This document shows positions 8,260 through 21,127 of a DNA stretch of 32,000 bases, piece after piece. Position 1 is the stretch's first letter. Each line of letters opens with the position of its first letter. Both the position numbers and the translations under genes were made by a program. Origin of the DNA: Candidatus Kuenenia stuttgartensis. Lineage in GTDB: Bacteria; Planctomycetota; Brocadiia; Brocadiales; Brocadiaceae. Location: assembly GCF_900232105.1 (NCBI RefSeq), contig NZ_LT934425.1, positions 3,660,001 to 3,692,000 of the forward strand. The letters run 5' to 3'. The notes below the pieces were generated by a model that was given only the letters and a program-made list of their open reading frames with translations, did no database searches and had not been told where the DNA came from.

Positions 8260-8330
8260 GGAAATATAGGGACATTTCCCTTATTGATTGATTGATCTGG
8301 GGAAAATAAGGGAAGTGTCCCTATATTTCC
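8260..8330. repeat. REP-like hairpin copy 1 (26-bp arms GGAAATATAGGGACATTTCCCTTATT / AATAAGGGAAGTGTCCCTATATTTCC)
   Basis: The arms are reverse-complementary with one mismatch. The loop contains ttgatctgg. It is the same family as 8651-8722, 9970-10045 and 19934-20001. Confidence 0.85.
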
Positions 8331-8519: not shown

Positions 8520-8650
8520 GCGACAAATCCGGCACGCCGAAATGTTCATAACCGTAATGGCATTTGATGTATGATTTACGATGTACGAAGTACGATTTAA
8601 AAATCGTAAATTGTAAATCTAAAATCGTACATTGAAAACGGAAACGTTGG

Positions 8651-8722
8651 GAGAATTATGGACATATCCCATATTTCTTGCTTGATATGGTGGGAAAATA
8701 AGGGAAGTGTCCCTGTATTTCC
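8651..8722. repeat. REP-like hairpin copy 2 (left arm degenerate)
   Basis: gagaattatggacatatcccatatttcttgcttgatatggtgggaaaataagggaagtgtccctgtatttcc aligns to copy 1. Confidence 0.7.
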
Positions 8723-9203: not shown

Positions 9204-9529
9204 AATTTATCTCCAATCTCCAATCTTTCAACGGCCATAAGCACTTGTTTCACTTGATATGCTTTAGCCTTTCCTTTATTATTCTGTATATTTATCCGCG
9301 GGTTATCCAGCCATGGTGTTTTATATACTCGATGACTGCTTCCCCTTTGAAGTGCGTCTCCAAAATAATTATCACAAACTGCGCAAAGATCATTGAATCT
9401 TACATTATTAGGGCTTTGGCGCATCTGTTCTAAAATATCTTTTATCTTGCTCCATTTTAAGATAGTATCATTAATGATATCATTGTCAAGGCTAGAATGT
9501 GATTGGGCATTTATATTGTTTTGACACAT
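9194..9529 (-). CDS. hicA: HicA-like toxin (start codon uncertain)
   Basis: The C-terminal part (FNDLCAVCDNYFG...GSSHRVYKTPW...INIQNNKGKAKAYQVKQVL) resembles the HicA family. It overlaps the downstream hicB by 10 nt. The ATG at 9529 lies inside the right box of attC-like site B. Confidence 0.6.
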   Translation of the reverse strand: MCQNNINAQSHSSLDNDIINDTILKWSKIKDILEQMRQSPNNVRFNDLCAVCDNYFGDALQRGSSHRVYKTPWLDNPRINIQNNKGKAKAYQVKQVLMAVERLEIGDKLWH

Positions 9530-9585
9530 AACGCCGAACTAAGCGCCGGCTGGTTTTTGCCGTCCGCTTGAGCGACTTGTTACGC
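9526..9585 (-). other. attC-like recombination site B (minus orientation)
   Basis: Read on the minus strand: GCGTAAC-aag-tcgctcaagcggacggc-aaaaa-ccagccggcgcttag-ttcggc-GTTATGT. Its left arm is nearly identical to that of site C (aacaagNcgctNcagcggacg). Confidence 0.6.
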
Positions 9586-9594
9586 GGCTGATTG

Positions 9595-9900
9595 TCATTT
9601 GATGTTGGCAGTTATTCGCCGTTTAGATGGAATAATCTCGATCAATGATCTAAGTGCTTTGTTGACCGCTTCCGAATCAGGAAAATATTTTTTTACGTCC
9701 GGCGCCAACAGAACTGCTCCATCTTCAAGCTTAAAATACTGTACTGAGATAGTGCCATCAGCCTGATGTATCTCAACTTTATGACCCGAACGATACGCTT
9801 TGTAGTGTTTTCCCCGTACCGCTCTTTTCATACTGGGAAAATCGTATTCCGACCTCATATCTTCTTCCCTCAACGAGCCTTTAGTGGATACCTTCTTCAT
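9595..9900 (-). CDS. Small antitoxin-like protein (orphan), family uncertain
   Basis: 101 aa. MRSEYDF...RGK near the N-terminus and LLAPDVKKYFPDSEAVNKALRSLIEI at the C-terminus resemble small TA antitoxins of the BrnA/DUF4415-like kind. There is no adjacent toxin ORF. Confidence 0.35.
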   Translation of the reverse strand: MKKVSTKGSLREEDMRSEYDFPSMKRAVRGKHYKAYRSGHKVEIHQADGTISVQYFKLEDGAVLLAPDVKKYFPDSEAVNKALRSLIEIIPSKRRITANIK

Positions 9901-9969
9901 AAAATCTTCTTTCGCGTGCTGTTGCCTTTCTGCAATTGATAATACGTATTTTATCCTTTCGTTCCGTAT

Positions 9970-10045
9970 GGGGGATAGGGGGACACACTTCCCATATTTT
10001 GTTTGATCTGGTAGGAGAATAAGGGACGTGTTCCCATATTTCCCC
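9970..10045. repeat. REP-like hairpin copy 3
   Basis: gggggatagggggacacacttcccatattttgtttgatctggtaggagaataagggacgtgttcccatatttcccc has the same arms and loop motif as the other copies. Confidence 0.8.
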
Positions 10046-10337
10046 TTAATAAAGGTTAGGTTGATGTGTATGGAGAGATTCCTTCCCGTTCACTCCTCAG
10101 AATAACCAAAAAAAAGCTTGCATTCTTCTTTATTTTTGTAGTATCTTCCTTTTTAAAGCAAAAGCAATTTCCTATCATCTTGATTTCGCCAAGGGGAGAA
10201 GACAATACAGGAAGCTCTCTTCGTAACAACAAGTTCGAACATGACCATCAAATGTCCACCAGACAAGTCGGAAATGGACCGCAAGCCGAAACTCATGAAC
10301 CGTCTTCGTGAAGCCCTTTCAGCAACAGCACAGCAAC

Positions 10338-11255
10338 TATCGCTGCACAAAGAGATAACCTTTAAAGGGGTGACATTTTTATCCTTAAATACCTATTTTT
10401 AGTACAGAAAAGAGTTGTTTAAGTAATTTTTGTTATGGCACGTGCAAATAGACATTATATCCCAAATTATGTTTGGCATATTACTCATAGATGCCATAAA
10501 AAAGAATTTCTTTTGAAATTTCTGAAAGATCGTAAGCGTTGGATGTACTGGCTGTTTGAAGCTAAAAAGAGATTTGGATTAAGGATATTAAACTATACTG
10601 TCACATCAAATCATATTCATCTATTGGTTATTGACAATGGTCGTGAGGTTATTCCGAAGAGTATCCAATTGGTAGCGGGGAGAACTGCACAGGAGTATAA
10701 TCAAAGAAAAAAGCGTAAGGGTGCATTTTGGGAAGACAGATATCACGCAACGGCAATAGAAACTGACATACATTTGATAAGATGTATGATGTATATTGAT
10801 TTGAATATGGTCAGGGCTGGTGTTGTAAAGCATCCGTGTGAATGGGCAATGAGTGGATATGATGAGATACAAAACCCACCGGATAGATACGCCTTAATAG
10901 ACATAAAAGGCTTGATTGAATTATGTGGGTTATCCAACAAGGAACAACTGAGGCATGAATATAAACAATGGGTAGAAGCTGCCATTAATGATAATGGCCT
11001 CAGGAGAGAGTCCTGTTGGACAGCAAGTATCGCAGTAGGGAGTAGGCGATTTGTAGAAGATACGAAGGTTAAGTTAGGTTTAAAAGCACATGGACGCAAG
11101 GTAGAGGAGGGTAACGATAAGTTTGTACTTAAAGAACCGATTGTTCCTTACAAGGCTCATTTAAGTGCCAAAAAAGATCTTCTAAGGCATGAAAACATGT
11201 ATTGTTGGGGGGGGAAACATAGTCAACGCAACAGGTTAGCTTGGTCCGACCCGAT
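10338..11255 (+). mobile_element. Y1-transposase (IS200-like / RAYT-type) repeat unit, left copy
   Basis: The 918 bp are co-linear with 17749-18665 at an offset of 7411. By eye I saw roughly ten substitutions plus one indel in a G-run. Confidence 0.85.
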
Positions 11256-11316
11256 TTACCAACCCCAAAGAGGGAGTTCAATCTCTCATCAGAAAAGTAG
11301 GGGACATTATACGTAA
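10435..11316 (+). CDS. IS200-like/REP-associated tyrosine (HUH, Y1) transposase; C-terminus altered by read-through
   Basis: HUH motif in TSNHIHLLV and the catalytic-Tyr helix motif MMYIDLNMVRAGVV. G8 here replaces GGGGGTG in the right copy, which removes the TGA stop. The ORF therefore runs on into group II intron-derived DNA. Confidence 0.8.
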   Translation: MARANRHYIPNYVWHITHRCHKKEFLLKFLKDRKRWMYWLFEAKKRFGLRILNYTVTSNHIHLLVIDNGREVIPKSIQLVAGRTAQEYNQRKKRKGAFWEDRYHATAIETDIHLIRCMMYIDLNMVRAGVVKHPCEWAMSGYDEIQNPPDRYALIDIKGLIELCGLSNKEQLRHEYKQWVEAAINDNGLRRESCWTASIAVGSRRFVEDTKVKLGLKAHGRKVEEGNDKFVLKEPIVPYKAHLSAKKDLLRHENMYCWGGKHSQRNRLAWSDPIYQPQRGSSISHQKSRGHYT

Positions 11317-11864
11317 ACATGTGAGTGCTCCTATTGAAGCCTTGTTTGAAAAGCTCAACTCTGTTCTACGAGGTTGGGCTAATTATCACAGGCATGTTGT
11401 CTCATCGGAAGCATTCAGCCGTGTTGACACCTATATCTTTGAACAACTATGGCGTATGGTAAGAAGAAGGCATCAGAACAAGACCAAAGGCTGGCTAATA
11501 AAAAAGTACTGGTCAGCCGCAGGAAAACATGTCTTTTCAATCTTACACAAGTAAAAAGAGAAGACTCGAATTTTAAAAATAATTCGGGTAAGCTCTATAG
11601 GGATAAAAAGGCATATAAAGATTAAAGCAGAAGCAACTCCTTACCTTTCTGAATACAGTAATTATTTCTGGAGAAGGAGAAACAGTAAGGAATCACGTCT
11701 GCTTGGTGCGCTATCACATCGCCAATATCAGGCAATGATAGCATCGAGGTAAAACAGTCGGGTTGTCCCACAAGGGCAGCTTATTGAAATGCTTGAGCTG
11801 TATGATGGGAAACTATCACGTACAGTTCTTAGGAGGGAATCGGGCAGCAATGCCCGTGACCTAT
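11256..11864 (+). mobile_element. 5'-truncated group II intron (3' part of the IEP ORF, then domains V and VI)
   Basis: Domain V at 11795-11828 (GAGCTGTATGATGGGAAACTATCACGTACAGTTC) is a 34-nt match to the GAGCCGTAT...GAAA...ACGTACGGTTC consensus, with the AGC triad and a GAAA loop. It is followed by a GNRA-capped hairpin (cgggca-gcaa-tgcccg) with a possible bulged A. The putative 3' end ...ctat is near 11864. Confidence 0.75.
11258..11752 (+). pseudogene. Group II intron reverse transcriptase/maturase, C-terminal remnant with an in-frame stop
   Basis: The frame reads ...TNPKEGVQSLIRKVGDIIRKHVSAPIEALFEKLNSVLRGWANYHRHVVSSEAF...LIKKYWSAAGKHVFSILHK*KEKTRILKIIRVSSIGIKRHIKIKAEATPYLSEYSNYFWRRR... 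The RGWANYH and RH-KIK---PY motifs are typical of the maturase/C-terminal region. A TAA at 11552-11554 interrupts the frame. Confidence 0.75.
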
Positions 11865-11923
11865 CCGGTGCGGCCAATTAAATTACGGCATAAATCAAAT
11901 CCAATAATCATAAGGATAAGAAT

Positions 11924-14017
11924 ATGAAGGCAAGCGAAACAAAGGTAGAAGACTTTTTATCATCAAACAAGACACAATTCATAATCCCTGTTTATCAAAG
12001 GAATTATGACTGGTCTATCAGTCAATGCAAACTGCTACTCGATGACATTCTCGAAGTTGGTACAAACAAGAAGATGAACGCCCATTTTATCGGCAGTATC
12101 GTTTATGTTCACGATGACGTATACACGGCATCAAGAATCAAGGAACTTACCGTCATTGATGGTCAGCAACGAGTTACAACCTTGACCCTGATTTATTTGG
12201 TATTACATCGTCTTGCACAGGAACTCAAAGAAGAAAAGCTTGTTAATGAAATCAGTGAAACGTATTTAATAAACAAGTTTGCTCCTGAAGAAGAAAAGCT
12301 GAAACTCCGGCCAACAGACAATAACGATAAAGCACTGAAATACCTTTTGCGCGGCGATGCAAATGAAGAATACTCTGATTTTTCAAAACTCATTGATAAC
12401 TTCAATTATTTCAAAGGCAGAATTACAGAAGATAACTATCAGATAGTATTGACTGGTTTATCAAAATTAATGTTCGTCGAAATTTCGCTTGACCGAGAAA
12501 GAGACGAGCCGCAGCGAATATTTGAGAGCCTTAATTCAACTGGCCTGGAACTTTCACAAGCTGACCTGATTCGCAACTATATTTTGATGGGTCTCAAACG
12601 AAGAGAGCAGAATAAGATTTATCAGAATTATTGGGAAGTAATTGAAAAACTTGCCAAGGATGAAATTCTTAATGTCAGCCGCGTTTCTGATTTCATCCGC
12701 GATTATTTAACAGTCGAAAATAATAATATTCCGAACAAAGGCAGAGTATATTTTGAATTCAAATCAAAGTATCCTACATCTACCCTTGAAGAATTGGAAT
12801 CAAACTTATCAGGAATTAAATCATTAGGAAAGCACTATAACAAGCTGATTAATCCGAAAAATGAACCGGATAAAGAAATAAGATTGCAACTCGAATATAT
12901 TAACCGCCTTGAAATTAATGTTGCCTATCCCTTTTTGATGAAGGTATATGATGATTACAGCAACTCCATAATTGACAAAGCAACATTCTTAAAGGTTTTA
13001 GATACAATCCAATCATTCACTTGGCGTCGTTTTATTGTTGGTCTCCCAACAAATGCTTTGAATAAAATATTTATGAATCTTTACGACAAGGTTGAGCGAG
13101 AGAATTATTTATATTCAATTCAAAAAGCTTTATTACAGCGGGCAGGAGTTCAAAGATATCCTAAAAATGAAGAGACCATAGATGCATTAAAAGTAAAAGA
13201 TGTTTACAACATAAAGGCTAAGAACAGAATATATTTACTTGAGCGGCTTGAAAATTATGACAACCGTGAACACGTCGCAATTGATGGAAATCCAGATATT
13301 ACAATTGAACATATCTTTCCGCAGAATCCTGATACCAAATGGAAAATTGAATTAGGTAATGATGAATATTCTTTCATTAAGGAAAATTATTTAAATACAA
13401 TCGGCAACCTTACCCTTTCCGGCAACAATGGAAAACTTGGCAATAAGCCATTCCTCGAAAAAAGAGATAAAGAAAACGATGGTTACAAAGATAGCAGGCT
13501 GTGGCTAAACAAATATCTGTCAGTCGCAGAGAAGTGGGACAGGGCGGAAATTGAAAGACGTTTTGGCATAATTGCAGAGAGATTCTTGAAAATATGGGAG
13601 CTTCCAACCATAGCTTTTGCTGAGGATAATGGCAATAATGAAGTTAATATATTTGAGGCAGAGGACCCAAAATTCAAGAAATTGGAGTATGCCATATTTC
13701 TGGATCAAAAACTTGAAATCAGGGCGGTGTCTCAGCTTTACGTTGAAGTATTCAAACAACTCTTTGAATTACAACCTGAAACATTCTTTACATCAGACAT
13801 AGGGCTGCGCATCGGCTTAACTAAAAATCCAGTCGAAGGAAGCCCCAGACAACCAATTGCCATTAACGACACGTATTTTATTGAAAGCAACTTAGACAAT
13901 ATAGGTAAGTTTGACAGGATTAAGCAGGCACTGACCTTGCTCAATCTTGAGGATGAATTAACAATTAAATATGCAAATGAAAACGCCGAACAAAAAAATC
14001 AACCCGACGCAGAATAG
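11924..14017 (+). CDS. DUF262 + DUF1524 (GmrSD/BrxU/SspE-like) nuclease-NTPase, putative type IV restriction/defence enzyme with ~170-aa C-terminal extension
   Basis: N-terminal motifs are IPVYQRNYDWSISQCKLLLDDI and VIDGQQRVTTL (DUF262 DGQQR). DUF1524 His-Me-like motifs are ITIEHIFPQNP and NTIGNLTLSGNNGKLGNKPF. Confidence 0.8.
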   Translation: MKASETKVEDFLSSNKTQFIIPVYQRNYDWSISQCKLLLDDILEVGTNKKMNAHFIGSIVYVHDDVYTASRIKELTVIDGQQRVTTLTLIYLVLHRLAQELKEEKLVNEISETYLINKFAPEEEKLKLRPTDNNDKALKYLLRGDANEEYSDFSKLIDNFNYFKGRITEDNYQIVLTGLSKLMFVEISLDRERDEPQRIFESLNSTGLELSQADLIRNYILMGLKRREQNKIYQNYWEVIEKLAKDEILNVSRVSDFIRDYLTVENNNIPNKGRVYFEFKSKYPTSTLEELESNLSGIKSLGKHYNKLINPKNEPDKEIRLQLEYINRLEINVAYPFLMKVYDDYSNSIIDKATFLKVLDTIQSFTWRRFIVGLPTNALNKIFMNLYDKVERENYLYSIQKALLQRAGVQRYPKNEETIDALKVKDVYNIKAKNRIYLLERLENYDNREHVAIDGNPDITIEHIFPQNPDTKWKIELGNDEYSFIKENYLNTIGNLTLSGNNGKLGNKPFLEKRDKENDGYKDSRLWLNKYLSVAEKWDRAEIERRFGIIAERFLKIWELPTIAFAEDNGNNEVNIFEAEDPKFKKLEYAIFLDQKLEIRAVSQLYVEVFKQLFELQPETFFTSDIGLRIGLTKNPVEGSPRQPIAINDTYFIESNLDNIGKFDRIKQALTLLNLEDELTIKYANENAEQKNQPDAE

Positions 14018-14072
14018 CGTCGGCGGTTTTTCCCGAAGTGGTTGCCTGCGCGGGTTATTTAAGTCGTTCTGC
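13985..14072 (+). other. attC-like recombination site F
   Basis: GCCGAAC-aaaaaaatc-AACCCGaCGCAG...CCTGCGCGGGTT-atttaagtc-GTTCTGC. The inner boxes pair over 11 bp with one bulged A. The right box is the exact complement of site C's left box. It overlaps the stop codon of the DUF262/DUF1524 gene. The internal hairpin ccgacgc-agaata-gcgtcgg followed by a T-run could double as a terminator. Confidence 0.6.
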
Positions 14073-14084
14073 TGATAAATAAAA

Positions 14085-14621
14085 ATGTCTCCATACACTA
14101 CATTTGATGATATCCGTTCGATTAATGAAAAAATTGATCGAAACGTAATTATTAAAGAAGCTTATAGCCGTCAGTATCCTAGTGTGTTTCTTTCACATTC
14201 TTCCGCTGATCATGAATCTTTGCCTGCTGTAATAAAAATACTCGAGAACCATGGTGGAAGAGTCTATATAGATGATGGTGATCCCAGGTTATCAGGAAAG
14301 GTAAACCCTAATACAGCCGAAGTCCTGCGTGAAACAATTGGTAAGTGTAGCAAATTGGTCGTATTAGTAACAACAAACACGAAAGACAGCCGCTGGGTGC
14401 CTTGGGAATTGGGTCTTGGAGATGGGAAAAAATTTCAAAGTAGCATAGCCATTTTCCCAGTCGTAAAGGATTCGTTGACAGAAAGCTGGCATGAGCAGGA
14501 ATATCTTGGATTATATAAAAGAATAGTGTGGTCAAAATTTAAAGGTAAAGATAAGAGTGAATGGATGGTTTGGGACCATAACGATAACACAGCCACTGGC
14601 TTGGGAGAATGGCTCCGTTAG
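14085..14621 (+). CDS. TIR-domain protein 1
   Basis: SVFLSHSSADHE (betaA-like), RVYIDD and KLVVLVTTNTKDSRWVPWELGLG (a W..E glutamate motif as in bacterial TIR NADases). 178 aa. Confidence 0.7.
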   Translation: MSPYTTFDDIRSINEKIDRNVIIKEAYSRQYPSVFLSHSSADHESLPAVIKILENHGGRVYIDDGDPRLSGKVNPNTAEVLRETIGKCSKLVVLVTTNTKDSRWVPWELGLGDGKKFQSSIAIFPVVKDSLTESWHEQEYLGLYKRIVWSKFKGKDKSEWMVWDHNDNTATGLGEWLR

Positions 14622-14636
14622 GGAAAGGTTCGCTAA

Positions 14637-15215
14637 ATGCAAAATTACGGCATATTATCTGGTCTACGCATCCCACCTAAGCATAAGGTTTTTATAAGTT
14701 ATCACCATGCCAATGATCAATGGGATAGGGATCGATTCGAAAATTTATTTAGTAATTATTATAGCGTTTTTATTTCAAAATCTGTCCAAATAGGTGAAAT
14801 TAGCGCATTCCTAAAAACAGATACCATTCGACAAAAAATCCGGGATGAATACCTCAGAGACAGCACGGTTACAGTAGTACTCATTGGTAAAGAAACATGG
14901 AAAAGAAAGAATGTTGACTGGGAAATTGGTGCGAGTCTAAGGCACACAATTTTAAATTCAAGATCTGGATTACTGGGAATTTTTTTGCCAGATCATCCTG
15001 ATTTTGGTCGGGATAAATATATACCTTACATAACCCCTCCTCGCCTTCATTATTGCGCCAAATGCGGTTATGCTACACTTCATGATTGGTCTGATGACCC
15101 AGCGATAGTTTCACAATGGATAGAAGGAGCGTTTAACCGCCGTTTTAAGGTTGATCCAGATAATTCATTTCCCTCTTTCATTAATAACAAATCGGGAGAA
15201 AGGTGGTCAGAATGA
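14637..15215 (+). CDS. TIR-like protein 2 (DUF1863/ThsB-like flavour)
   Basis: KVFISYHHANDQWDRDRF and STVTVVLIGKETWKRKNVDWEIGASL match the pattern I associate with ThsB-type TIR-like domains. Confidence 0.65.
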   Translation: MQNYGILSGLRIPPKHKVFISYHHANDQWDRDRFENLFSNYYSVFISKSVQIGEISAFLKTDTIRQKIRDEYLRDSTVTVVLIGKETWKRKNVDWEIGASLRHTILNSRSGLLGIFLPDHPDFGRDKYIPYITPPRLHYCAKCGYATLHDWSDDPAIVSQWIEGAFNRRFKVDPDNSFPSFINNKSGERWSE

Positions 15216-15685
15216 AATGGAAAGAATGGCTTGAAAATTGGAGTATGACAACCCTTAAAATAAATCCACCTTTTCTGGAAATGGAGTGGAAGCCTAAAGA
15301 TGAGGACAAAGATGCAGCTTGGGAGCTATATATTGAGCTTCTAACACGCATTACCACACAACCACTCCCCAAAGAACATGGCGATGAATCTACAGCACTT
15401 GATTCTATTCATTCCATATTCAACCTTACCAGAGAAGTTATCAAAAGGCGTGGTCGTCTCTGTATTGAATTTACTAAAATTGCGATTGTGATTCTTAACC
15501 AAAAAATTAGACCATTCACTGCAAAATGGCACAAACTGATGATAGACAAAGCTTTTGAGAATCCTACGAAATGCGCGGAGTTTAGGAAAGAACTAGAGGA
15601 GCTTCAAAAAATTTTACTAATATACACGAAAATGCTTGCAGATATGTCAGGGGTAGAGGATTTGACAGAACTTGAGAAACAATAA
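15212..15685 (+). CDS. Hypothetical all-alpha protein, unknown family, translationally coupled to TIR-like protein 2
   Basis: An ATGA start/stop overlap at 15212-15215. I prefer this ATG to the GTG at 15203. I see no TM segment and no recognisable catalytic motif. The sequence is helical-looking (AAWELYIELLTRITTQPL..., KCAEFRKELEELQKILLIYTKMLADM). Confidence 0.55.
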   Translation: MKWKEWLENWSMTTLKINPPFLEMEWKPKDEDKDAAWELYIELLTRITTQPLPKEHGDESTALDSIHSIFNLTREVIKRRGRLCIEFTKIAIVILNQKIRPFTAKWHKLMIDKAFENPTKCAEFRKELEELQKILLIYTKMLADMSGVEDLTELEKQ

Positions 15686-15697
15686 ATAAAACCCAAA

Positions 15698-16132
15698 ATG
15701 TCCAGTAATCAAAATAATTCAAGGTTTGTTTTTATTAGTCACAGTAGCCTCGATACTTGGATAGCGAAACAGATAGCTAAGGAGGTCGAACTATGTGGTG
15801 CAATTCCATTCTTAGATGAAGCAAATGTGAATATTGGAGACGAGTTTGAAGATAAAATATTGGAATTTTTGGATAAATCGCACTATTTGATAGTTTTATT
15901 TACCCCTTGGGCCTTAGAACGACCTTATGTATGGGCAGAGATAGGTGCTGCATGGAGCAATCGAATCCCAATAATAGTTGTTTTACATGGTATCACTTCA
16001 TCTGAACTTCAAAAACGCCCTGGAATCCCTGTATTTATTAAAAAACGAGACATAATTGAACTGAACGAAATCGATAAATTCTTTTTGCAATTAAAAAACA
16101 AAATACAAGAGTTTCAATCTGGTGTGCAATGA
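15698..16132 (+). CDS. TIR-domain protein 3
   Basis: RFVFISHSSLDTWIAKQIAKEV, AIPFLDE and YLIVLFTPWALERPYVWAEIGAAW. 144 aa. Confidence 0.7.
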   Translation: MSSNQNNSRFVFISHSSLDTWIAKQIAKEVELCGAIPFLDEANVNIGDEFEDKILEFLDKSHYLIVLFTPWALERPYVWAEIGAAWSNRIPIIVVLHGITSSELQKRPGIPVFIKKRDIIELNEIDKFFLQLKNKIQEFQSGVQ

Positions 16133-16545
16133 ATAAAAAAGTATTTATATCCTATTCAAGGGAAGATACCTCCGAAATAAGAGCTTTAGTTGACAATTTG
16201 AGTCAAATTAACCTTGATATTTGGTCAGATCAAAATATTTCTGCAGGTGATAACTGGGCTAACTTAATTGAAGAGAATCTTAGAAAAAGTGAAATTGTAC
16301 TTTTGTTCATATCTCCACGAGCACTGGCAAGTGAGTGGGTGATGATGGAGTTTGGTGCTGCTGTCGCTTTAAAGAAAAAAATCATTCCTGTGGTTCTTAA
16401 AGATACTCATATTCCCTCCTTCTTGTCAGAGCATAAATATATCAGGGCGAATAGTATTAATGAAGCTGCTGAAAAAATCAAAGAAACATTATGCAAAATA
16501 GCAGAACAAGACGCTTCAGCGGACGAGAAAAAGTCGCGCCGCTGA
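16129..16545 (+). CDS. TIR-domain protein 4
   Basis: KKVFISYSREDTSEIRALV, IWSDQNISAGDNW and IVLLFISPRALASEWVMMEFGAAVALKKKIIPVVL. An ATGA overlap links it to the preceding gene. Confidence 0.75.
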   Translation: MNKKVFISYSREDTSEIRALVDNLSQINLDIWSDQNISAGDNWANLIEENLRKSEIVLLFISPRALASEWVMMEFGAAVALKKKIIPVVLKDTHIPSFLSEHKYIRANSINEAAEKIKETLCKIAEQDASADEKKSRR

Positions 16546-16559
16546 GCTTTTTGTTAGGT
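16501..16559 (+). other. attC-like recombination site C
   Basis: GCAGAAC-aag-acgcttcagcggacg-agaaaaa-gtcgcgccgctgagc-ttttt-GTTAGGT. The arms pair with single-base bulges. It overlaps the last codons of TIR protein 4. Confidence 0.65.
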
Positions 16560-16572
16560 ATATATAGTAAAC

Positions 16573-17529
16573 ATGGATAAATCAATTAGAAAAAATGAGA
16601 TATGCGTTGTTGGATTACCACGCTGTGACTTCGTGTTTTCTTCAACTCGTAGTTGTTTCATAGCGTATGGCTTTGATACTAGTACACTGGAAATGAATAT
16701 CCTAAAAAGCCTACTAGAAGAGCGCGGCCTCATTGCTGAAGAAGCAGGTGGTACACTTGCTCCTGGTCAAAGTGCATTTTGCGCAAAAATTTGCTCGAAA
16801 ATTATTACATCTCAATTCTGTGTAGTTTTATTAAATCATGACTTAAGAAATGGCGTTGAGACTCCAAATGCAAACGTAAATATGGAATATGGGCTAATGC
16901 TAGGATTTAATAAATATGTAATCCCTTTTCAACGTGAGGGCCAGCATCTTCCCTTTAATGTCGCTGGCCTAGATACCGTAAAATACACAAATCAAAACTT
17001 TCGAGATAAAGCGATTATTGCATTAGAACAGGCAATCTCTGAAACGACACAGGAGTCAGTGCCACGGGACAATTCTGATCAAATAATCCAATTGTTTTTA
17101 ATGGAGAGAGGATTACTAGTTTCTGCGATAGATAGCGAAGGCGATAGAAACTTGTATCGCTTGGGTGATTCACTTGGATTTAACCTGCTCAATACATTCT
17201 CAGGTAACGAGTACGTATACTTTGGCAGATTTACTTCTCTTAGGCCAGAATCTGTCGTATGGCGATTAAGAAAACTTAATTCAGTAGTATCAGGCCGACG
17301 CAGCTCACTTCCTGGTAGAGTCGCGCAGGGTCTTATTACACAAGAACTACTACCTTTTGTAGATCGATTGTTCGAGACAATGAGTATTATGGTCATAGTA
17401 ACAAGTGATGCTGATAAAACAGTAATTACTGAACAACTACAAAGACAACCACTTGATTACTCTGTGGAGCTACTTACCGTCACGGAAATATTTAATGAGG
17501 TTAAAAGTGCAATACCAACTAATGCCTAA
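16573..17529 (+). CDS. Two-domain protein: N-terminal TIR / nucleoside 2-deoxyribosyltransferase / SLOG-like Rossmannoid domain plus C-terminal domain of unknown family
   Basis: CFIAYGFD (first strand), FCVVLLNHD and NANVNMEYGLMLGFNKYVIPF (an acidic residue-Gly...Lys-x-V-I motif as in NDT/TIR-like folds). I could not recognise the C-terminal ~150 aa. Confidence 0.5.
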   Translation: MDKSIRKNEICVVGLPRCDFVFSSTRSCFIAYGFDTSTLEMNILKSLLEERGLIAEEAGGTLAPGQSAFCAKICSKIITSQFCVVLLNHDLRNGVETPNANVNMEYGLMLGFNKYVIPFQREGQHLPFNVAGLDTVKYTNQNFRDKAIIALEQAISETTQESVPRDNSDQIIQLFLMERGLLVSAIDSEGDRNLYRLGDSLGFNLLNTFSGNEYVYFGRFTSLRPESVVWRLRKLNSVVSGRRSSLPGRVAQGLITQELLPFVDRLFETMSIMVIVTSDADKTVITEQLQRQPLDYSVELLTVTEIFNEVKSAIPTNA

Positions 17530-17583
17530 CAAGGCACTCCAGCCGACGCTAAAAAGCAGCGCGGCTGAGTTTGATCGTTAGTA
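17524..17583 (+). other. attC-like recombination site D
   Basis: GCCTAAC-aag-gcactccagccgacgc-taaaaa-gcagcgcggctgag-tttgatc-GTTAGTA. The left arm carries two extra (bulged) bases relative to the right arm. The stop codon of the 318-aa gene lies inside the left box. Confidence 0.65.
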
Positions 17584-17618
17584 TCAGTAACTATCAATAA
17601 AGTACCAGGAGATTAAAG

Positions 17619-17813
17619 ATGTTAAATACATTGTGGGGTGTTGTCAAAAAAGAAAAAATTGAGCTTCTGGAAAAGGCAAATATCCCTGAAGGGACAAGGG
17701 TTTTGGTAACTGTGTTGGAGATGGCAACGGGGTCGGACCATGATAAGTTATCGCTGCACAAAGAGATAACCTTTAAAGGGGTGACATTTTTATCCTTAAA
17801 TACCTATTTTTAG
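17619..17813 (+). pseudogene. Chimeric/disrupted DUF104-like antitoxin gene
   Basis: The first 33 codons (MLNTLWGVVKKEKIELLEKANIPEGTRVLVTVL) are nearly identical to the gene at 19508. The ORF then diverges and runs into the Y1-transposase repeat that starts at 17749. Confidence 0.6.
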
Positions 17814-18665
17814 TACAGAAAAGAGTTGTTTAAGTAATTTTTGTTATGGCACGTGCAAATAGACATTATATCCCAAATTATGTTTGGCATATTACTCATA
17901 GATGCCATAAGAAAGAATTTCTTTTGAAATTTCTGAAAGATCGTAAGCGTTGGGTGTACTGGCTGTTTGTAGCTAAAAAGAGATTTGGATTAAGGATATT
18001 AAACTATACTGTCACATCAAATCATATTCATCTATTGGTTATTGACAATGGTCGTGAGGTTATTCCGAAGAGTATCCAATTGGTAGCGGGGAGAACTGCA
18101 CAGGAGTATAATCAAGGAAAAAAGCGTAAGGGTGCATTTTGGGAAGACAGATATCACGCAACGGCAATAGAAACTGACATACATTTGATAAGATATATGA
18201 TGTATATTGATTTGAATATGGTCAGGGCTGGTGTTGTAAAGCATCCGTGTGAATGGGCAATGAGTGGATATGATGAGATACAAAACCCACCGGATAGATA
18301 CGCCTTAATAGACATAAAAGGCTTGATTGAATTATGTGGGTTATCCAACAAGGAACAACTGAGGCATGAATATAAACAATGGGTAGAAGCTGCCATTAAT
18401 GATAATGGCCTCAGGAGAGAGTTCTGTTGGACAGCAAGTATCGCAGTAGGGAGTAGGCGATTTGTAGAAGATACGAAGGTTAAGTTATGTTTAAAAGCAC
18501 ATGGACGCAAGGTAGAGGAGGGTAACGATAAGTTTGTACTTAAAGAACCGATTGTTCCTTACAATGCTCATTTAAGTGCCAAAAAAGATCTTCTAAGGCA
18601 TGAAAATATGTATTGTTGGGGGTGAAACATAGTCAACGCAACAGGTTAGCTTGGTCCGACCCGAT
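17749..18665 (+). mobile_element. Y1-transposase (IS200-like / RAYT-type) repeat unit, right copy
   Basis: Direct repeat of 10338-11255. Confidence 0.85.
17846..18625 (+). CDS. IS200-like/REP-associated tyrosine (HUH, Y1) transposase, 259 aa
   Basis: Same protein as 10435.. with seven amino-acid differences. It ends at a TGA that is lost in the left copy. Confidence 0.8.
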   Translation: MARANRHYIPNYVWHITHRCHKKEFLLKFLKDRKRWVYWLFVAKKRFGLRILNYTVTSNHIHLLVIDNGREVIPKSIQLVAGRTAQEYNQGKKRKGAFWEDRYHATAIETDIHLIRYMMYIDLNMVRAGVVKHPCEWAMSGYDEIQNPPDRYALIDIKGLIELCGLSNKEQLRHEYKQWVEAAINDNGLRREFCWTASIAVGSRRFVEDTKVKLCLKAHGRKVEEGNDKFVLKEPIVPYNAHLSAKKDLLRHENMYCWG

Positions 18666-18787
18666 CCAACAAAGAGACATAAGCGATGGTGTTTGAAGTG
18701 TTTATCAATATAGTACTTGCCATATCAAAGGCGTGTTATATGTACAATAAATCTGTATTCCGCATATTATGCGGATCAATCTAATCA

Positions 18788-19114
18788 ATGTTAGCACTTA
18801 AAAGAAGAAAACAGATGAAACCAGAAAAAAACGATATACCTATAAAGGTCAAAATATCTGGCAGGCAATTAGAAGAACTCCAGAAATATACAGTCGATAT
18901 GTGTGAAGCATTTGGTCTGGATAGAAGAATTGAAAATTACAAAGGTACTAGACCAATATCCTTTTACAGTTGGGATTTAGATTGTATCCTAGATGTACTT
19001 TCTATGGCCCTTAATGATAAAAAAGAATATCCAGATAGAGAAGATGAAGGCTACATCAAGCTGCACGAATTATATGTTCAGTTGAAAACTGCATATAAAG
19101 AAACATACGGGTAA
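18788..19114 (+). CDS. Hypothetical protein (cassette-borne), unknown family
   Basis: 108-aa ORF with coding-like composition and no motif I recognise. An alternative start is at 18815. Confidence 0.4.
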   Translation: MLALKRRKQMKPEKNDIPIKVKISGRQLEELQKYTVDMCEAFGLDRRIENYKGTRPISFYSWDLDCILDVLSMALNDKKEYPDREDEGYIKLHELYVQLKTAYKETYG

Positions 19115-19342
19115 TTTACAGGGTGTGGCTTGTCGGCGGCACTGGGATAAAGCCAATAGAATCCAAACATTATTGGTATCAATGAAATACAACCGCCAAG
19201 CCACGGCCTTATTTTGATGGGTCGGCTTAGCTCAACATATTTTGTAAATCAAACATTAATTGCAGCAGAAAGTAAGTGCAAGAAAAGTAAAGGCAAGGCA
19301 AGGCAAGGCTCGTGGGTATAATAAACAACGCAGGTAATTCAG

Positions 19343-19472
19343 TGCTAACCAGCGCATTCAGCCGACCAGCTACCCTTTTGCGGTTTTCTAGTTTTGTGGC
19401 TTCGTTCACCATCATCATGCAGGCCAACTTATGCGCTTCTAATCTGCTGTCGGCTGATGCTGTGCGTTAGTA
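19343..19472 (+). other. attC-like recombination site E (long form, ~130 bp)
   Basis: TGCTAAC-cag-cgcattcagccgaccagc ...(~75 nt)... gctgtcggctgatgctgtgc-GTTAGTA. The arms are complementary with bulges and homologous to those of site D. Confidence 0.55.
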
Positions 19473-19507
19473 TCAGTAACTATCAATAAAGTACCAGGAG
19501 ATTAAAG

Positions 19508-19675
19508 ATGTTAAATACATTGTGGGGTGTTGTCAAAAAAGAAAAAATTGAGCTTCTGGGAAAGGCAAATATCCCTGAAGGGACAAGGGTTTTGGTAACT
19601 GTGTTGCCTGACGATACTGGATTTACAGTTCTGGTTGAAAACAAGCCAAATCTCTTTGGATGCGATTTGGAATAA
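19508..19675 (+). CDS. DUF104/AF2212-like small antitoxin (55 aa; below the ORF-track size cut-off)
   Basis: My translation: MLNTLWGVVKKEKIELLGKANIPEGTRVLVTVLPDDTGFTVLVENKPNLFGCDLE. The G-x-I-x-LL...PEGT-V-V-V pattern is typical of this antitoxin family. It lies directly upstream of a MazF-like gene. Confidence 0.6.
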   Translation: MLNTLWGVVKKEKIELLGKANIPEGTRVLVTVLPDDTGFTVLVENKPNLFGCDLE

Positions 19676-19692
19676 CTCAGAGGATGATGTGT

Positions 19693-19977
19693 ATGCAGAA
19701 TTACTCAAAGAATGATGTAGTTTTAGTCCGTTATCCCTTTGCAGATTTGTCAAGCTCAACGGTCAGACCTGCGGTTGTTATCAGTACGCCACATATCTCT
19801 GGTGACATTTTTGTTGTGCCACTGACCAGTAAAACAGCTTCTCTTTTGCCGGGTGAGTTTATACTGACAGACTGGAATAGTGCGGGGCTTAATGTGATCA
19901 CGACGGTTAAGCGTGGAATTTACACTGCAAACAGGGAATATGGGGACACTTCCCATATTTCTTGTTTGATCTGGTAG
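19693..19977 (+). CDS. PemK/MazF-family toxin; the 3' end is replaced by a REP-like hairpin, so it is probably truncated and inactive
   Basis: KNDVVLVRYPFADLSSSTVRPAVVIS...IFVVPLTSK...LLPGEFILTDWNSAGLNVITTVKRGIYT is MazF-like. From ~19934 the reading frame runs through REP copy 4. Confidence 0.6.
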   Translation: MQNYSKNDVVLVRYPFADLSSSTVRPAVVISTPHISGDIFVVPLTSKTASLLPGEFILTDWNSAGLNVITTVKRGIYTANREYGDTSHISCLIW

Positions 19978-20001
19978 GAGAATAAGGGAAGTGTTCCTAT
20001 A
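19934..20001. repeat. REP-like hairpin copy 4, interrupted by IS630 (the remaining 6 nt are at 21130-21135)
   Basis: gggaatatggggacacttcccatatttcttgtttgatctggtaggagaataagggaagtgttccta-TA. Joining it to TA-tttccc at 21128-21135 restores the ...cctatatttccc arm seen in copy 1. Confidence 0.8.
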
Positions 20002-21127
20002 TAGTCAAACAAATCAGGTTTTCGAAATTTGCTCGCCAATAATTTGAAAATTTTCAGTTAAAAGAGTAGACAATTCATCTGTATACTCGTTAATATTTTT
20101 GAAAAAACTTAAACATTTGTTTTTAAACTTCTCATAAGTATCATAATACTTGTTATACAATATTTCTTTGCGAAAGAATTTCCATAATCTTTCAATGAGA
20201 TTTAAATTGGGTGAATAGGAAGGGAGAAATTTGATCTTTATTCTCGAATTTGCAAGGTATTCTTTGACCAACTTAGAACTGTAATATTTAGCATTATCAG
20301 AGATTATGTAAATAGTACCGGCTTGAGCATACCTTGACTCTATTTCATGGAAAAGCTTTATTGTTGATTGAGCATTGATGCTTTCATCTTCCCGGATTGT
20401 TACTTCAAAGGTTTCTATGTCAATAGCACCGTTTAAATTTATTCTTTTCCTACCGGTATTAGAGGGTATTTCCTTCTTTTTGCCTTTCTCTATCCAGCAA
20501 TATGCAGACGTAGAATTGTGCTGTGGATGAACTCCATCCATAAAAAGTATCTTATCTCCGGGGGCTTTCTCTTCTTTGAGTTGTTTGTATTTTTCGATAA
20601 ATTCTTTTTGTTTTTCAGGGTTTGCTTTGCCTGGAACTATTGTAGTTTTCTTGTAAGTAAAGCCTAATCTATCGAGGGTATGTACCATTCCTTCGGGTGT
20701 ATAGATTTTATTGAATGTCTGTTTTACATATTCAACAATTTCTTTTGCCGCGCTATAGTTGTTTTTCCTGATATGATCTTTTAATTGTTCTTCTTGTTCG
20801 CAGGTGAGTTTTGGCACACAGCCAATATAATTGTCAGATAAAAGCCCGTCAAAACCTTTATCTTTGTATAGTTTTTCGTAATTCCTGATTGTTTGATCGT
20901 CTAACAAGAGCGCTTCTGCTACTTCTTCATAACTCCATCCTGAATCAAGAAGAAGTATAGCTTTGATTCGGTCGGCATGACGTCTATGAGGCTCTTTCTT
21001 ATGTGCTTTTTTAAATTCTATTCGGGTTTTTTCACTGAGAAATGGATTCATGCAGAATTTAATACTCTAGAAACAATTCAAATGCAAGAAAAAAACAGGT
21101 TCTTCTAAAAATAAATGCTTTTTACTA
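20002..21127 (-). mobile_element. IS630-family insertion sequence (~1.13 kb) with TA target duplication
   Basis: TA at 20000-20001 and at 21128-21129. The ends are TAGTCAAAC... and ...CTTTTTACTA (reverse complement TAGTAAAAAG). It has a single transposase ORF. Confidence 0.8.
20014..21051 (-). CDS. IS630-family (Tc1/mariner-like DDE) transposase
   Basis: N-terminal HTH region (ILLLDSGWSYEEVAEALLLDDQTIRNY). DDE-region blocks are LFMDGVHPQHN, IYIISDNAKYYSS and FLPSYSPNLNLIERLWKFFRKE. Confidence 0.85.
   Translation of the reverse strand: MNPFLSEKTRIEFKKAHKKEPHRRHADRIKAILLLDSGWSYEEVAEALLLDDQTIRNYEKLYKDKGFDGLLSDNYIGCVPKLTCEQEEQLKDHIRKNNYSAAKEIVEYVKQTFNKIYTPEGMVHTLDRLGFTYKKTTIVPGKANPEKQKEFIEKYKQLKEEKAPGDKILFMDGVHPQHNSTSAYCWIEKGKKKEIPSNTGRKRINLNGAIDIETFEVTIREDESINAQSTIKLFHEIESRYAQAGTIYIISDNAKYYSSKLVKEYLANSRIKIKFLPSYSPNLNLIERLWKFFRKEILYNKYYDTYEKFKNKCLSFFKNINEYTDELSTLLTENFQIIGEQISKT

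Follow-up and report, generated by a model that had tools for sequence, protein, structure and literature searches.

A probably fossil pair of TIRtron-like repeats around defence cassettes in an apparently decayed integron of Candidatus Kuenenia stuttgartensis

Two direct repeats around a run of defence cassettes

The DNA analysed here, referred to as the window, is a stretch of 32,000 nucleotides (positions 3,660,001-3,692,000) of the closed, single-contig, 4,406,153-bp genome of Candidatus Kuenenia stuttgartensis. Two direct repeats in the window, at 10338-11255 (918 nt) and 17749-18665 (917 nt), enclose 6.5 kb of cargo that includes defence genes, and each carries a gene for a Y1/HUH transposase. 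Judged from sequence comparison, both repeats are copies of a TIRtron, an element in which a RAYT-like gene, the TIRYT gene, lies between terminal inverted repeats. In the shorthand used below, P and Q are the left and right outer flanks of the block, E is a TIRtron copy and A is the left flank of the right copy; the annotated features of the copies, flanks and cargo all lie on the forward strand.

Precise alignment agrees with an earlier note, made from the sequence alone, that described the repeats as near-identical. The copies are ∼98.8% identical and, compared base by base, differ by 10 substitutions and a 1-nt indel in a run of G residues (the G-run). All 10 substitutions fall inside the open reading frame (ORF) and consist of seven missense changes, two silent changes and one GGG/TGA difference; the note's seven replacements stand, but its three or so silent changes become two plus the GGG/TGA difference. 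A search of the whole genome finds the repeat only at these two places in the 4.4-Mb contig. At least 73% of the interval 9800-19200 is covered in 18 sequencing runs from at least 14 studies. Because all four repeat junctions recur in independent metagenome assemblies (runs X1, X5 and X17, and contig L109), the pair is not an artefact of assembly, which the earlier note had named as a possible refutation. L109, a 7-kb contig from the Joint Genome Institute (JGI), spans 10874-17885 at 100% identity, running from inside the left copy through the cargo to inside the right copy, and two further assemblies have the same order.

The cargo begins with the 3' fragment of a group II intron (11256-11875), in which the C-terminus of the maturase/reverse transcriptase (11321-11554; TIGR04416, E 2.6e-10) and domains V/VI (11793-11869; Rfam RF00029, 60.6 bits) are detected. 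The 3' end of the intron is attached to a GmrSD cassette (11742-14068, gene 11924-14017) that matches Pfam GmrSD_N and GmrSD_C and, in PADLOC, Orf5 (1e-143) and mREase_IV. Four TIR-domain genes and a 160-aa ORF (15203-15685) follow within 14085-16545, with matches to Pfam TIR_2 and ThsB_TIR and, for the first gene, to PADLOC ThsB (2.8e-57). Next comes a 318-aa ORF (16573-17529) that has no PADLOC match and whose sole family match is a faint one to CAP12-PCTIR_TIR. The enclosed genes are those listed in the earlier note, and their PADLOC and Pfam matches confirm that the two copies bracket defence genes.

An attC-like hairpin ending CGTTAGTATC (17523-17580; DNA fold -15.5 kcal/mol, z -3.9) marks a cassette boundary on the right side of the cargo, and its last ∼12 nt together with the next 144 nt are duplicated at 19451-19606. 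Flank A is the 5' two-thirds of a small antitoxin-like ORF (17619-17717), which is 96% identical to 19451-19606 and ends at 17717. The label antitoxin-like is taken from position: the paralogue of this ORF (19508-19675) precedes a weak MazF/PemK-like ORF (19660-19977; PemK_toxin, E 0.0011). What is left of the ORF is read as a truncated toxin-antitoxin cassette of small size, with which the run of cargo cassettes closes. Between strains, 17576-17717 and 19465-19606 behave as alleles of the small ORF. The right copy had been described as interrupting an antitoxin gene. A truncated small ORF does adjoin it, but this is not a simple insertion, because similarity ends 8 nt before the element and the remainder of the ORF is not found downstream of the copy.

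The GmrSD stretch (11742-14068) is shared on its own, at 99.7-100% identity, by three arrays (that of the window, L107 and L110/L111) in which the encoded protein is identical and the neighbours differ. About 130 nt of the group II intron end remain attached to the shared cassette, and its right break lies between ...AAGTCG and TT, the integron crossover point G/TT. Since this stretch alone recurs and breaks at that point, the cargo moves as cassettes independently of E. In L107, the cassette lies beside an intI-like gene, a Hachiman system (HamA and helicase) and an FRG-domain gene; in L110, it lies upstream of Peptidase_M78 and DUF4411 genes.

The outer flank P is an intI remnant comprising the first ∼32 codons (10241-10337), which aligns with a longer intI N-terminus in genome G010 (L103, 216-716 on the minus strand, containing KPKLMDSLRGSFRSRHYSRRTEQTYCHWVKRFIFFH); a promoter-like stretch of intI lies nearby (∼10100-10150). 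The outer flank Q is an attI-like unit that ends GTTAG (18670-18794), is followed by cassettes and has copies of 80-94% identity in relatives. Q-like copies adjoin C-terminal intI remnants, ending in TMIYTHVLNRGPAGVHSPLDRL before the stop codon, in G002, G004, G009, G011 and G017; in five relatives, the unit lies ∼55 nt 3' of the intI stop, with different cassettes after GTTAG. The left copy abuts codon 33 of intI and the right copy abuts the attI-like unit. Since the block 10338-18665 is bordered by the 5' end of intI on one side and by the attI-like unit on the other, it replaces ∼0.92 kb of intI.

The locus is best read as a decayed chromosomal integron, with its integrase pointing towards its cassettes. 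The features seen are the intI remnant and the attI-like unit, both recognised by homology, the GmrSD break at G/TT and one attC-like hairpin. A home-made scan for attC patterns (RYYYAAC...GTTRRRY with inner stems) finds none even in arrays considered real, the pattern being too strict. A tblastn search with the IntI fragments against 80 homologous loci with 2.5-kb flanks finds matches only in L038 and, as a fragment, in L022. Known integron-dwelling elements, such as the IS1111-attC group and group IIC-attC introns, offer a parallel for a single-strand- or hairpin-dependent element in a cassette array beside a group II intron. The present case differs in that the enzyme belongs to another class than IS1111 or the introns, and in its flanks, which are intI, an intron ORF, a small ORF and an attI-like unit. 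An IS200/605 element has been reported beside a cluster of attC sites lacking integron-integrases (CALIN) in Halorhodospira (PMC7923331).

The 125-nt attI-like unit (18670-18794) and the promoter stretch of intI (10071-10180) are 80-94% conserved across Brocadiaceae (L098-L103 and L017). Since they often adjoin internally deleted intI genes, many decayed 'inverted-integrase' integrons seem to be implied in this family. A same-genus locus (L017; G002:C21:30000-47000), compared with 9506-21122, has a different 7.6 kb between the HicB/cytochrome side and RNase R; this island contains Sel1, a 667-aa protein with an eCIS_core domain and MazF, and its integron remnant is oriented oppositely relative to the flanks. 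In the window, an IS630-type element (DDE_3; 20014-21051), present in at least 10 copies at 99% in the genome, is inserted beside the last hairpin of the array.

The TIRtron unit and its enzyme

A protein search finds thousands of homologues of the encoded transposase, of 258-268 aa and 55-80% identity, in many phyla. When the flanks were compared over 80 fetched genomic loci of these homologues, two ends recurred at 55-58 loci: an upstream end, GGGGTCGGACCAAGCTAAC, located 105-134 nt 5' of the ATG, and a downstream end, its reverse complement GTTAGCTTGGTCCGACCCC, immediately 3' of the stop codon. Loci with conserved ends come from Desulfobacterota, Gamma-, Beta- and Zetaproteobacteria, Nitrospirota, Binatia, Bacteroidota and Brocadiaceae. 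The ends form terminal inverted repeats of ∼20 bp (GGGGTCGGACC...GGTCCGACCC), and where the unit is duplicated in other genomes, the duplication runs exactly from inverted repeat to inverted repeat (945 bp at 100% in L114; 1090 bp in L115). These comparisons show a discrete element of ∼940-1090 bp that consists of a 260-aa RAYT-like Y1/HUH gene (TIRYT), a leader of ∼110 nt with a hairpin, and terminal inverted repeats.

In the window, the right copy measures 940 nt from inverted repeat to inverted repeat (17726-18665) and shares both ends exactly with a copy in G002. Its left inverted repeat (IRL), AACGGGGTCGGACCATGATAAGT (17726-17748, 23 nt), lies outside the duplicated stretch; its right inverted repeat (IRR; 18645-18665) is the conserved end motif; and its TIRYT gene (17846-18625, 259 aa) keeps the HUH motif and the catalytic tyrosine and ends in a derived TGA. 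The left copy (10338-11255), a direct repeat of 17749-18665, has no IRL. Its IRR, GTTAGCTTGGTCCGACCCGAT (11235-11255), is the motif that stands directly after the stop codon in ∼58 homologous loci from many phyla, and in its TIRYT gene (10435-11316, 293 aa) a run of eight G shifts the frame after codon ∼258.

The leader hairpin, of the family form CTTAGA..TTTTT / AAAAA..TCTAAG, is sited 10-30 nt 5' of the ATG and covaries across phyla. Its pairing among 44 family members (columns 68-108 of alignment A4) is 69%, where slid controls reach 35-56%, and it scores 0.207 for covariation versus at most 0.121 in controls. These values refer to a hand-written structure; RNAalifold returned no leader consensus, as MAFFT had misaligned the stem. 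In the left copy, the hairpin (CTTAAA..TTTTT/AAAA..TTTAAG) lies at 10384-10423 and is identical to 17795-17834. It could be the recognition hairpin of the transposase or an IS200-like translational control element.

Short tandem units, or stutter repeats, are present in 25 of 113 element flanks, compared with one of 288 windows 300-900 nt further out and none of 113 shuffled flanks (Fisher p 4e-14). The unit, of 5-17 nt, comprises the last 3-6 nt of the terminus and a few flank bases, and lies outside both terminal repeats; the two window copies have none. Examples among L021-L097 are L092, L079, L090, L042, L048, L086, L056, L040, L075 and L093. Solo extra right ends occur at L034, L086, L067 and L088, and truncated or reiterated ends and tandem copies are frequent among family members (L113, L115).

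The enzyme falls within the Y1/HUH family, on the RAYT side. Pfam Y1_Tnp (PF01797) scores 42.2 and 37.7 bits in the two copies (E 1e-10 and 2.6e-9), above its cut-off of 23 in both, which disposes of the concern that the protein might lie outside the family. The NCBIfam RAYT model, REP_Tyr_transpos, gives 61 and 58 bits against a cut-off of 80, and the NCBIfam IS200 model gives 26 (25.8) and 23 bits against a cut-off of 55, so that neither cut-off is reached. The HUH motif SNHIHLL (H60, H62) and Y120 in YIDLNMVRAG are invariant among 24 aligned homologues and retained in both copies. For an AlphaFold model (pLDDT 73), the best Foldseek match is E. coli RAYT 4ER8_A (TM target 0.73, rmsd 2.8), followed by IS608 and ISDra2 TnpA; a sequence-only profile search of the PDB finds no match. 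To our knowledge, no TIRYT has ever been assayed at the bench.

RAYT-like genes between inverted repeats were named TIRYT genes, and the elements TIRtrons, by Di Nocera, De Gregorio & Rocco (2013, PMC3733652). Later work identified TIRtrons with TnpA-Y1 subclass 2.1 (Quentin et al. 2018, PMC6006769), a grouping that corresponds to RAYT group 1 (Bertels et al. 2017, PMC5581495). The right copy has the RAYT-like gene at a fixed distance between terminal inverted repeats, and the left copy has the same layout without IRL. Further likenesses to TIRtrons are a RAYT-like Y1 gene longer than classical RAYTs, terminal inverted repeats beginning GGGG, low copy number, the absence of a REP (repetitive extragenic palindromic) family from the genome, and a wide, patchy distribution over phyla. 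The pair differs from TIRtrons in lying within an integron, in its complementary defects and in one base of the repeat core: GGGGTCGG fits GGGGWSAS, a motif attributed to 'some' TIRtron repeats (PMC3733652), at seven of eight positions, with G for A at position 7.

The window protein may belong to subclass 2.1. The subclass is characterised by a C-terminal helix-turn-helix (HTH)-like domain (Bac_DnaA_C / HTH_23 / HTH_28) and the motifs NHVH or NH[YF]H, W[EQ], and YIELNP or Y[IV]HLNP, YVDLNP being the signature of subclass 2.3 (PMC6006769). The window protein has NHIH, WE and YIDLNM, of which WE matches subclass 2.1 and the other two are near but not identical, and its C-terminal half (residues 140-259) has no Pfam HTH match.

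With the RAYT/REPtron of E. coli (TnpA-REP, 4ER8), the unit shares the fold, the HUH motif with a single catalytic tyrosine, and a gene between inverted elements. It differs in having no GTAG-tagged REP hairpins, an extra C-terminal part of ∼120 aa and no genome-wide REPIN family, its end motifs occurring at the two copies alone, and in scoring below the RAYT cut-off. IS200/IS605 elements (IS608, ISDra2) share with it the Y1 HUH fold, genes on the lagging-strand-template strand, the lack of an obvious target-site duplication and, as in IS200, a 5'-leader hairpin. Those elements have no terminal inverted repeats, carry subterminal hairpins at both ends, encode a TnpA of ∼150 aa and are usually multicopy, whereas the present unit has terminal inverted repeats, a 260-aa enzyme, no tnpB, two copies and an IS200 score under the cut-off.

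A separate family of ∼70-nt REP/MITE-like (miniature inverted-repeat transposable element) inverted repeats occurs at ∼30 sites in the genome, several of them in local clusters; in the window it is found at 8260-8330, 8650-8722, 9971-10043 and 19934-20006. These hairpins were considered as cognate REPINs and rejected, as they have no sequence relation to the conserved TIRtron ends; they may be a second type of attC or a MITE.

Damage to the two copies and the history of the block

When L104 and the copy in G002 serve as outgroups, nine of the 10 substitutions polarise as changes in the right copy (two silent, six missense and the new TGA) and one, K240, as a change in the left copy, which also has the longer G-run. 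The derived missense changes of the right copy are E42V, R91G, C117Y, S193F and G215C, at mostly invariant or near-invariant columns, plus M37V. The dN/dS between the copies, 0.86, is indistinguishable from neutrality; across the TIRYT family, dS is saturated and dN is ∼0.18. The suggestion that at least one copy is decaying is upheld by this neutral pattern, and the derived sites identify it as the right copy. A Campbell crossover inside E, raised by the left-like/right-like mosaic of a variant in X19, was dropped as unsupported because the two outgroups show nearly all differences to be derived in the right copy.

The G-run (11206-11213 and 18617-18623) sets the C-terminus of TIRYT at 259, 261 or 293 aa. 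Its alleles are eight G in the left copy here, six G in the sister assembly L105, GGGTGG in L104, X19 and X5, GGGGGTG in the right copy and GTGAGGG in G002. The left copy was thought to have lost its stop codon through a G-run indel. A length change did occur, but a G/T change is also involved, the TGA of the right copy is the derived state, and the frameshift varies by strain, the L105 ORF being intact at 261 aa.

At the left end, GGGGTCGGACCAKGATAAGT is found between 10337 and 10338 in runs X19 and X5 and in contig L104. Since it stands at the same junction in other populations, the present genome has a precise 20-nt deletion of the left end; the sister assembly L105 and run X1 have the same intI junction without the left inverted repeat. 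The 20-nt repeat is a presence/absence polymorphism at one intI junction across populations. The 5' flank of both window copies terminates in GCAAC (ATAAC in G002). A joint 10327->17724 in run X5, considered as a 7.4-kb deletion, was rejected, because the sequence there is that of the left flank, then the 20-nt inverted repeat and then the beginning of E. The sole E copy of the same-genus genome (G002:C40) shares its IRL with the right copy, and its right end also stops at ...CCCGAT. This copy (L016 10225-11033) has both terminal repeats and a 129-bp internal deletion, and its neighbours are the C-terminal fragment of a transposase and a further domain V/VI of a group II intron. The window copies thus appear to be damaged in complementary ways: the right one has good ends and a decaying gene, and the left one has a near-ancestral gene and a missing end.

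The pair is probably a fossil of two TIRtrons in a decayed integron, not a working cargo transposon, and constitutes 0.9 kb of portable homology; this reading is favoured because the block lacks an outer end on the left and encodes no enzyme that is clearly functional. The earlier note called the arrangement composite-transposon-like. The layout is indeed that of composite transposons (Tn10, Tn5, the IS26 pseudo-compound type), with two direct copies of a small element around accessory genes, but the mechanism is not borne out. The left copy has no IRL here or in L105, the genes are impaired, and the block is found at this locus only in the assemblies and runs examined. There is no clean empty site, because the outer flanks correspond to intI codon 32 and to 55 nt past the intI stop, with ∼0.92 kb missing. 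In addition, the TIRtron transposase is not of the DDE type, the cargo consists of integron cassettes and there is no sign that the unit has moved.

The P-E junction is common to other populations (L104, X19, X5), and in run X19 it has a depth of 240-300 where the cargo has a depth of 0; the left copy therefore stood at this position before the cargo did, or at least can occur there in its absence. As this junction is common to strains without cargo, the left copy at intI would be the older, resident one. The second copy would have arisen by a same-strand local hop or have come in with foreign DNA; both TIRYT genes lie on the lagging-strand-template strand, which would fit Y1 biology. Homologous exchange between strains would then have given the present order. 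Today, the pair would be unable to move the block by its own ends, and its 0.9-kb homology could delete or amplify the cassettes; the point made in the earlier note, that the repeats are a substrate for homologous recombination, holds trivially, given 918 bp at 99% identity.

Several points weigh against the fossil reading. No P-E-Q single-copy form or circle junction is found among the contigs examined, and since contigs drop rare variants, the absence of deletion and circle forms is not established by them. No unique order of events can be derived. The 9:1 asymmetry of derived sites could come from selection on the left copy or from a separate origin of the right copy. The left inverted repeat is kept in X5 and X19, and a mobile block with both outer ends may exist or have existed. 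The whole mechanism is, moreover, an analogy with IS200/IS605 and the E. coli RAYT.

A separate origin is developed in the next best alternative, a distinctly less probable one, in which the cargo and a divergent right copy were imported together and became attached to the resident copy at its right end. Recombination at the very 3' end of E could have made this attachment; so could a one-ended Y1 event in which the right end was fixed while the left boundary varied and upstream cassettes were taken along. In favour of such an import, derived states extend over the whole length of the right copy, and the copies located at intI (the left copy and L104) are close to each other. The P-E junction found without cargo, the truncated, reiterated and tandem ends of the family (L113, L115), the stutter repeats at termini and the small-ORF alleles that differ between strains also agree with it. 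However, purifying selection on the left copy alone would produce the same asymmetry, and neither a donor locus nor a circular form is seen. We know of no demonstration of one-ended transposition by Y1 enzymes of the TIRYT type.

A working or recent composite transposon, in which the two outermost ends, the left one of the left copy and the right one of the right copy, would serve to move the 8.3-kb block, is improbable. The layout of the pair would suit it, and so would the inverted repeat of the left copy in X5, X19 and L104, the intact 261-aa left protein predicted in L105, which could act in trans, and the same-orientation pairs that surround defence cassettes twice in Desulfosarcina. These points are outweighed by the missing left outer end here and in L105, by outer flanks that stem from separate parts of intI/attI, between which ∼0.92 kb is missing, instead of a simple target site, and by the single location of the block in every assembly or run that holds it. 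Furthermore, the GmrSD cassette moves without E, and X19 has a left copy with its inverted repeat and no cargo. Finally, duplication of one copy through repeat mis-assembly can in practice be dismissed: the genome presumably stems from a long-read assembly, in which homopolymer lengths such as that of the G-run can err, but no support for mis-assembly was found, the copies are distinguished by 11 positions, short-read assemblies from separate studies recover the junctions, and L109 and two further assemblies support the order.

TIRtron pairs beyond this locus

Similar pairs occur in other genomes. In Desulfosarcina alkanivorans, attC-bounded cassettes lie between TIRtrons of the same orientation at two places, the members of the pairs being 12 and 13.2 kb apart (L113, G030:C1:587500-604000; L114, G030:C1:6015500-6032500). 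In one of the pairs, the copies match at 100% over the whole unit, inverted repeats included, and the ORF is dead. Among the bracketed genes are Gabija GajA/GajB (E 4e-286, 3e-236), a NACHT protein and acetyltransferases (GNATs). A 170-nt attC-like repeat has 19 copies in this genome, every one of them within two arrays, and eight of the 11 TIRYT matches fall in the same arrays. Desulfosediminicola has three TIRtron copies, spaced by 6 kb and in tandem, that lie in no array.

At the present locus, and at two places in Desulfosarcina alkanivorans, runs of defence cassettes stand between same-strand copies separated by 6-13 kb. A tentative and rather doubtful extension is that integron arrays are the preferred home of TIRtrons of this family and are reshaped by them, with sloppy end choice by the Y1 enzyme carrying neighbouring cassettes along; sloppy end choice is suggested because the ends are variable or reiterated and stutter repeats are present at the termini. 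If true, this would give blocks of defence genes a mobility that needs no integron.

The element class was named in 2013 and is little studied, and the window pair is otherwise made up of ordinary decaying copies of a mobile element. The locus nevertheless offers a natural dissection of a TIRtron, with good ends and a bad gene in one copy, and a good gene (intact in the sister strain) and a missing end in the other. Together with variants between populations in which the difference is precisely the 20-nt terminal repeat, this makes it possible to design a trans-complementation test of the enzyme directly. Anammox bacteria are used in wastewater reactors worldwide, and in these organisms TIRtrons would add a second layer of mobility or rearrangement to phage-defence cassettes carried by integrons.

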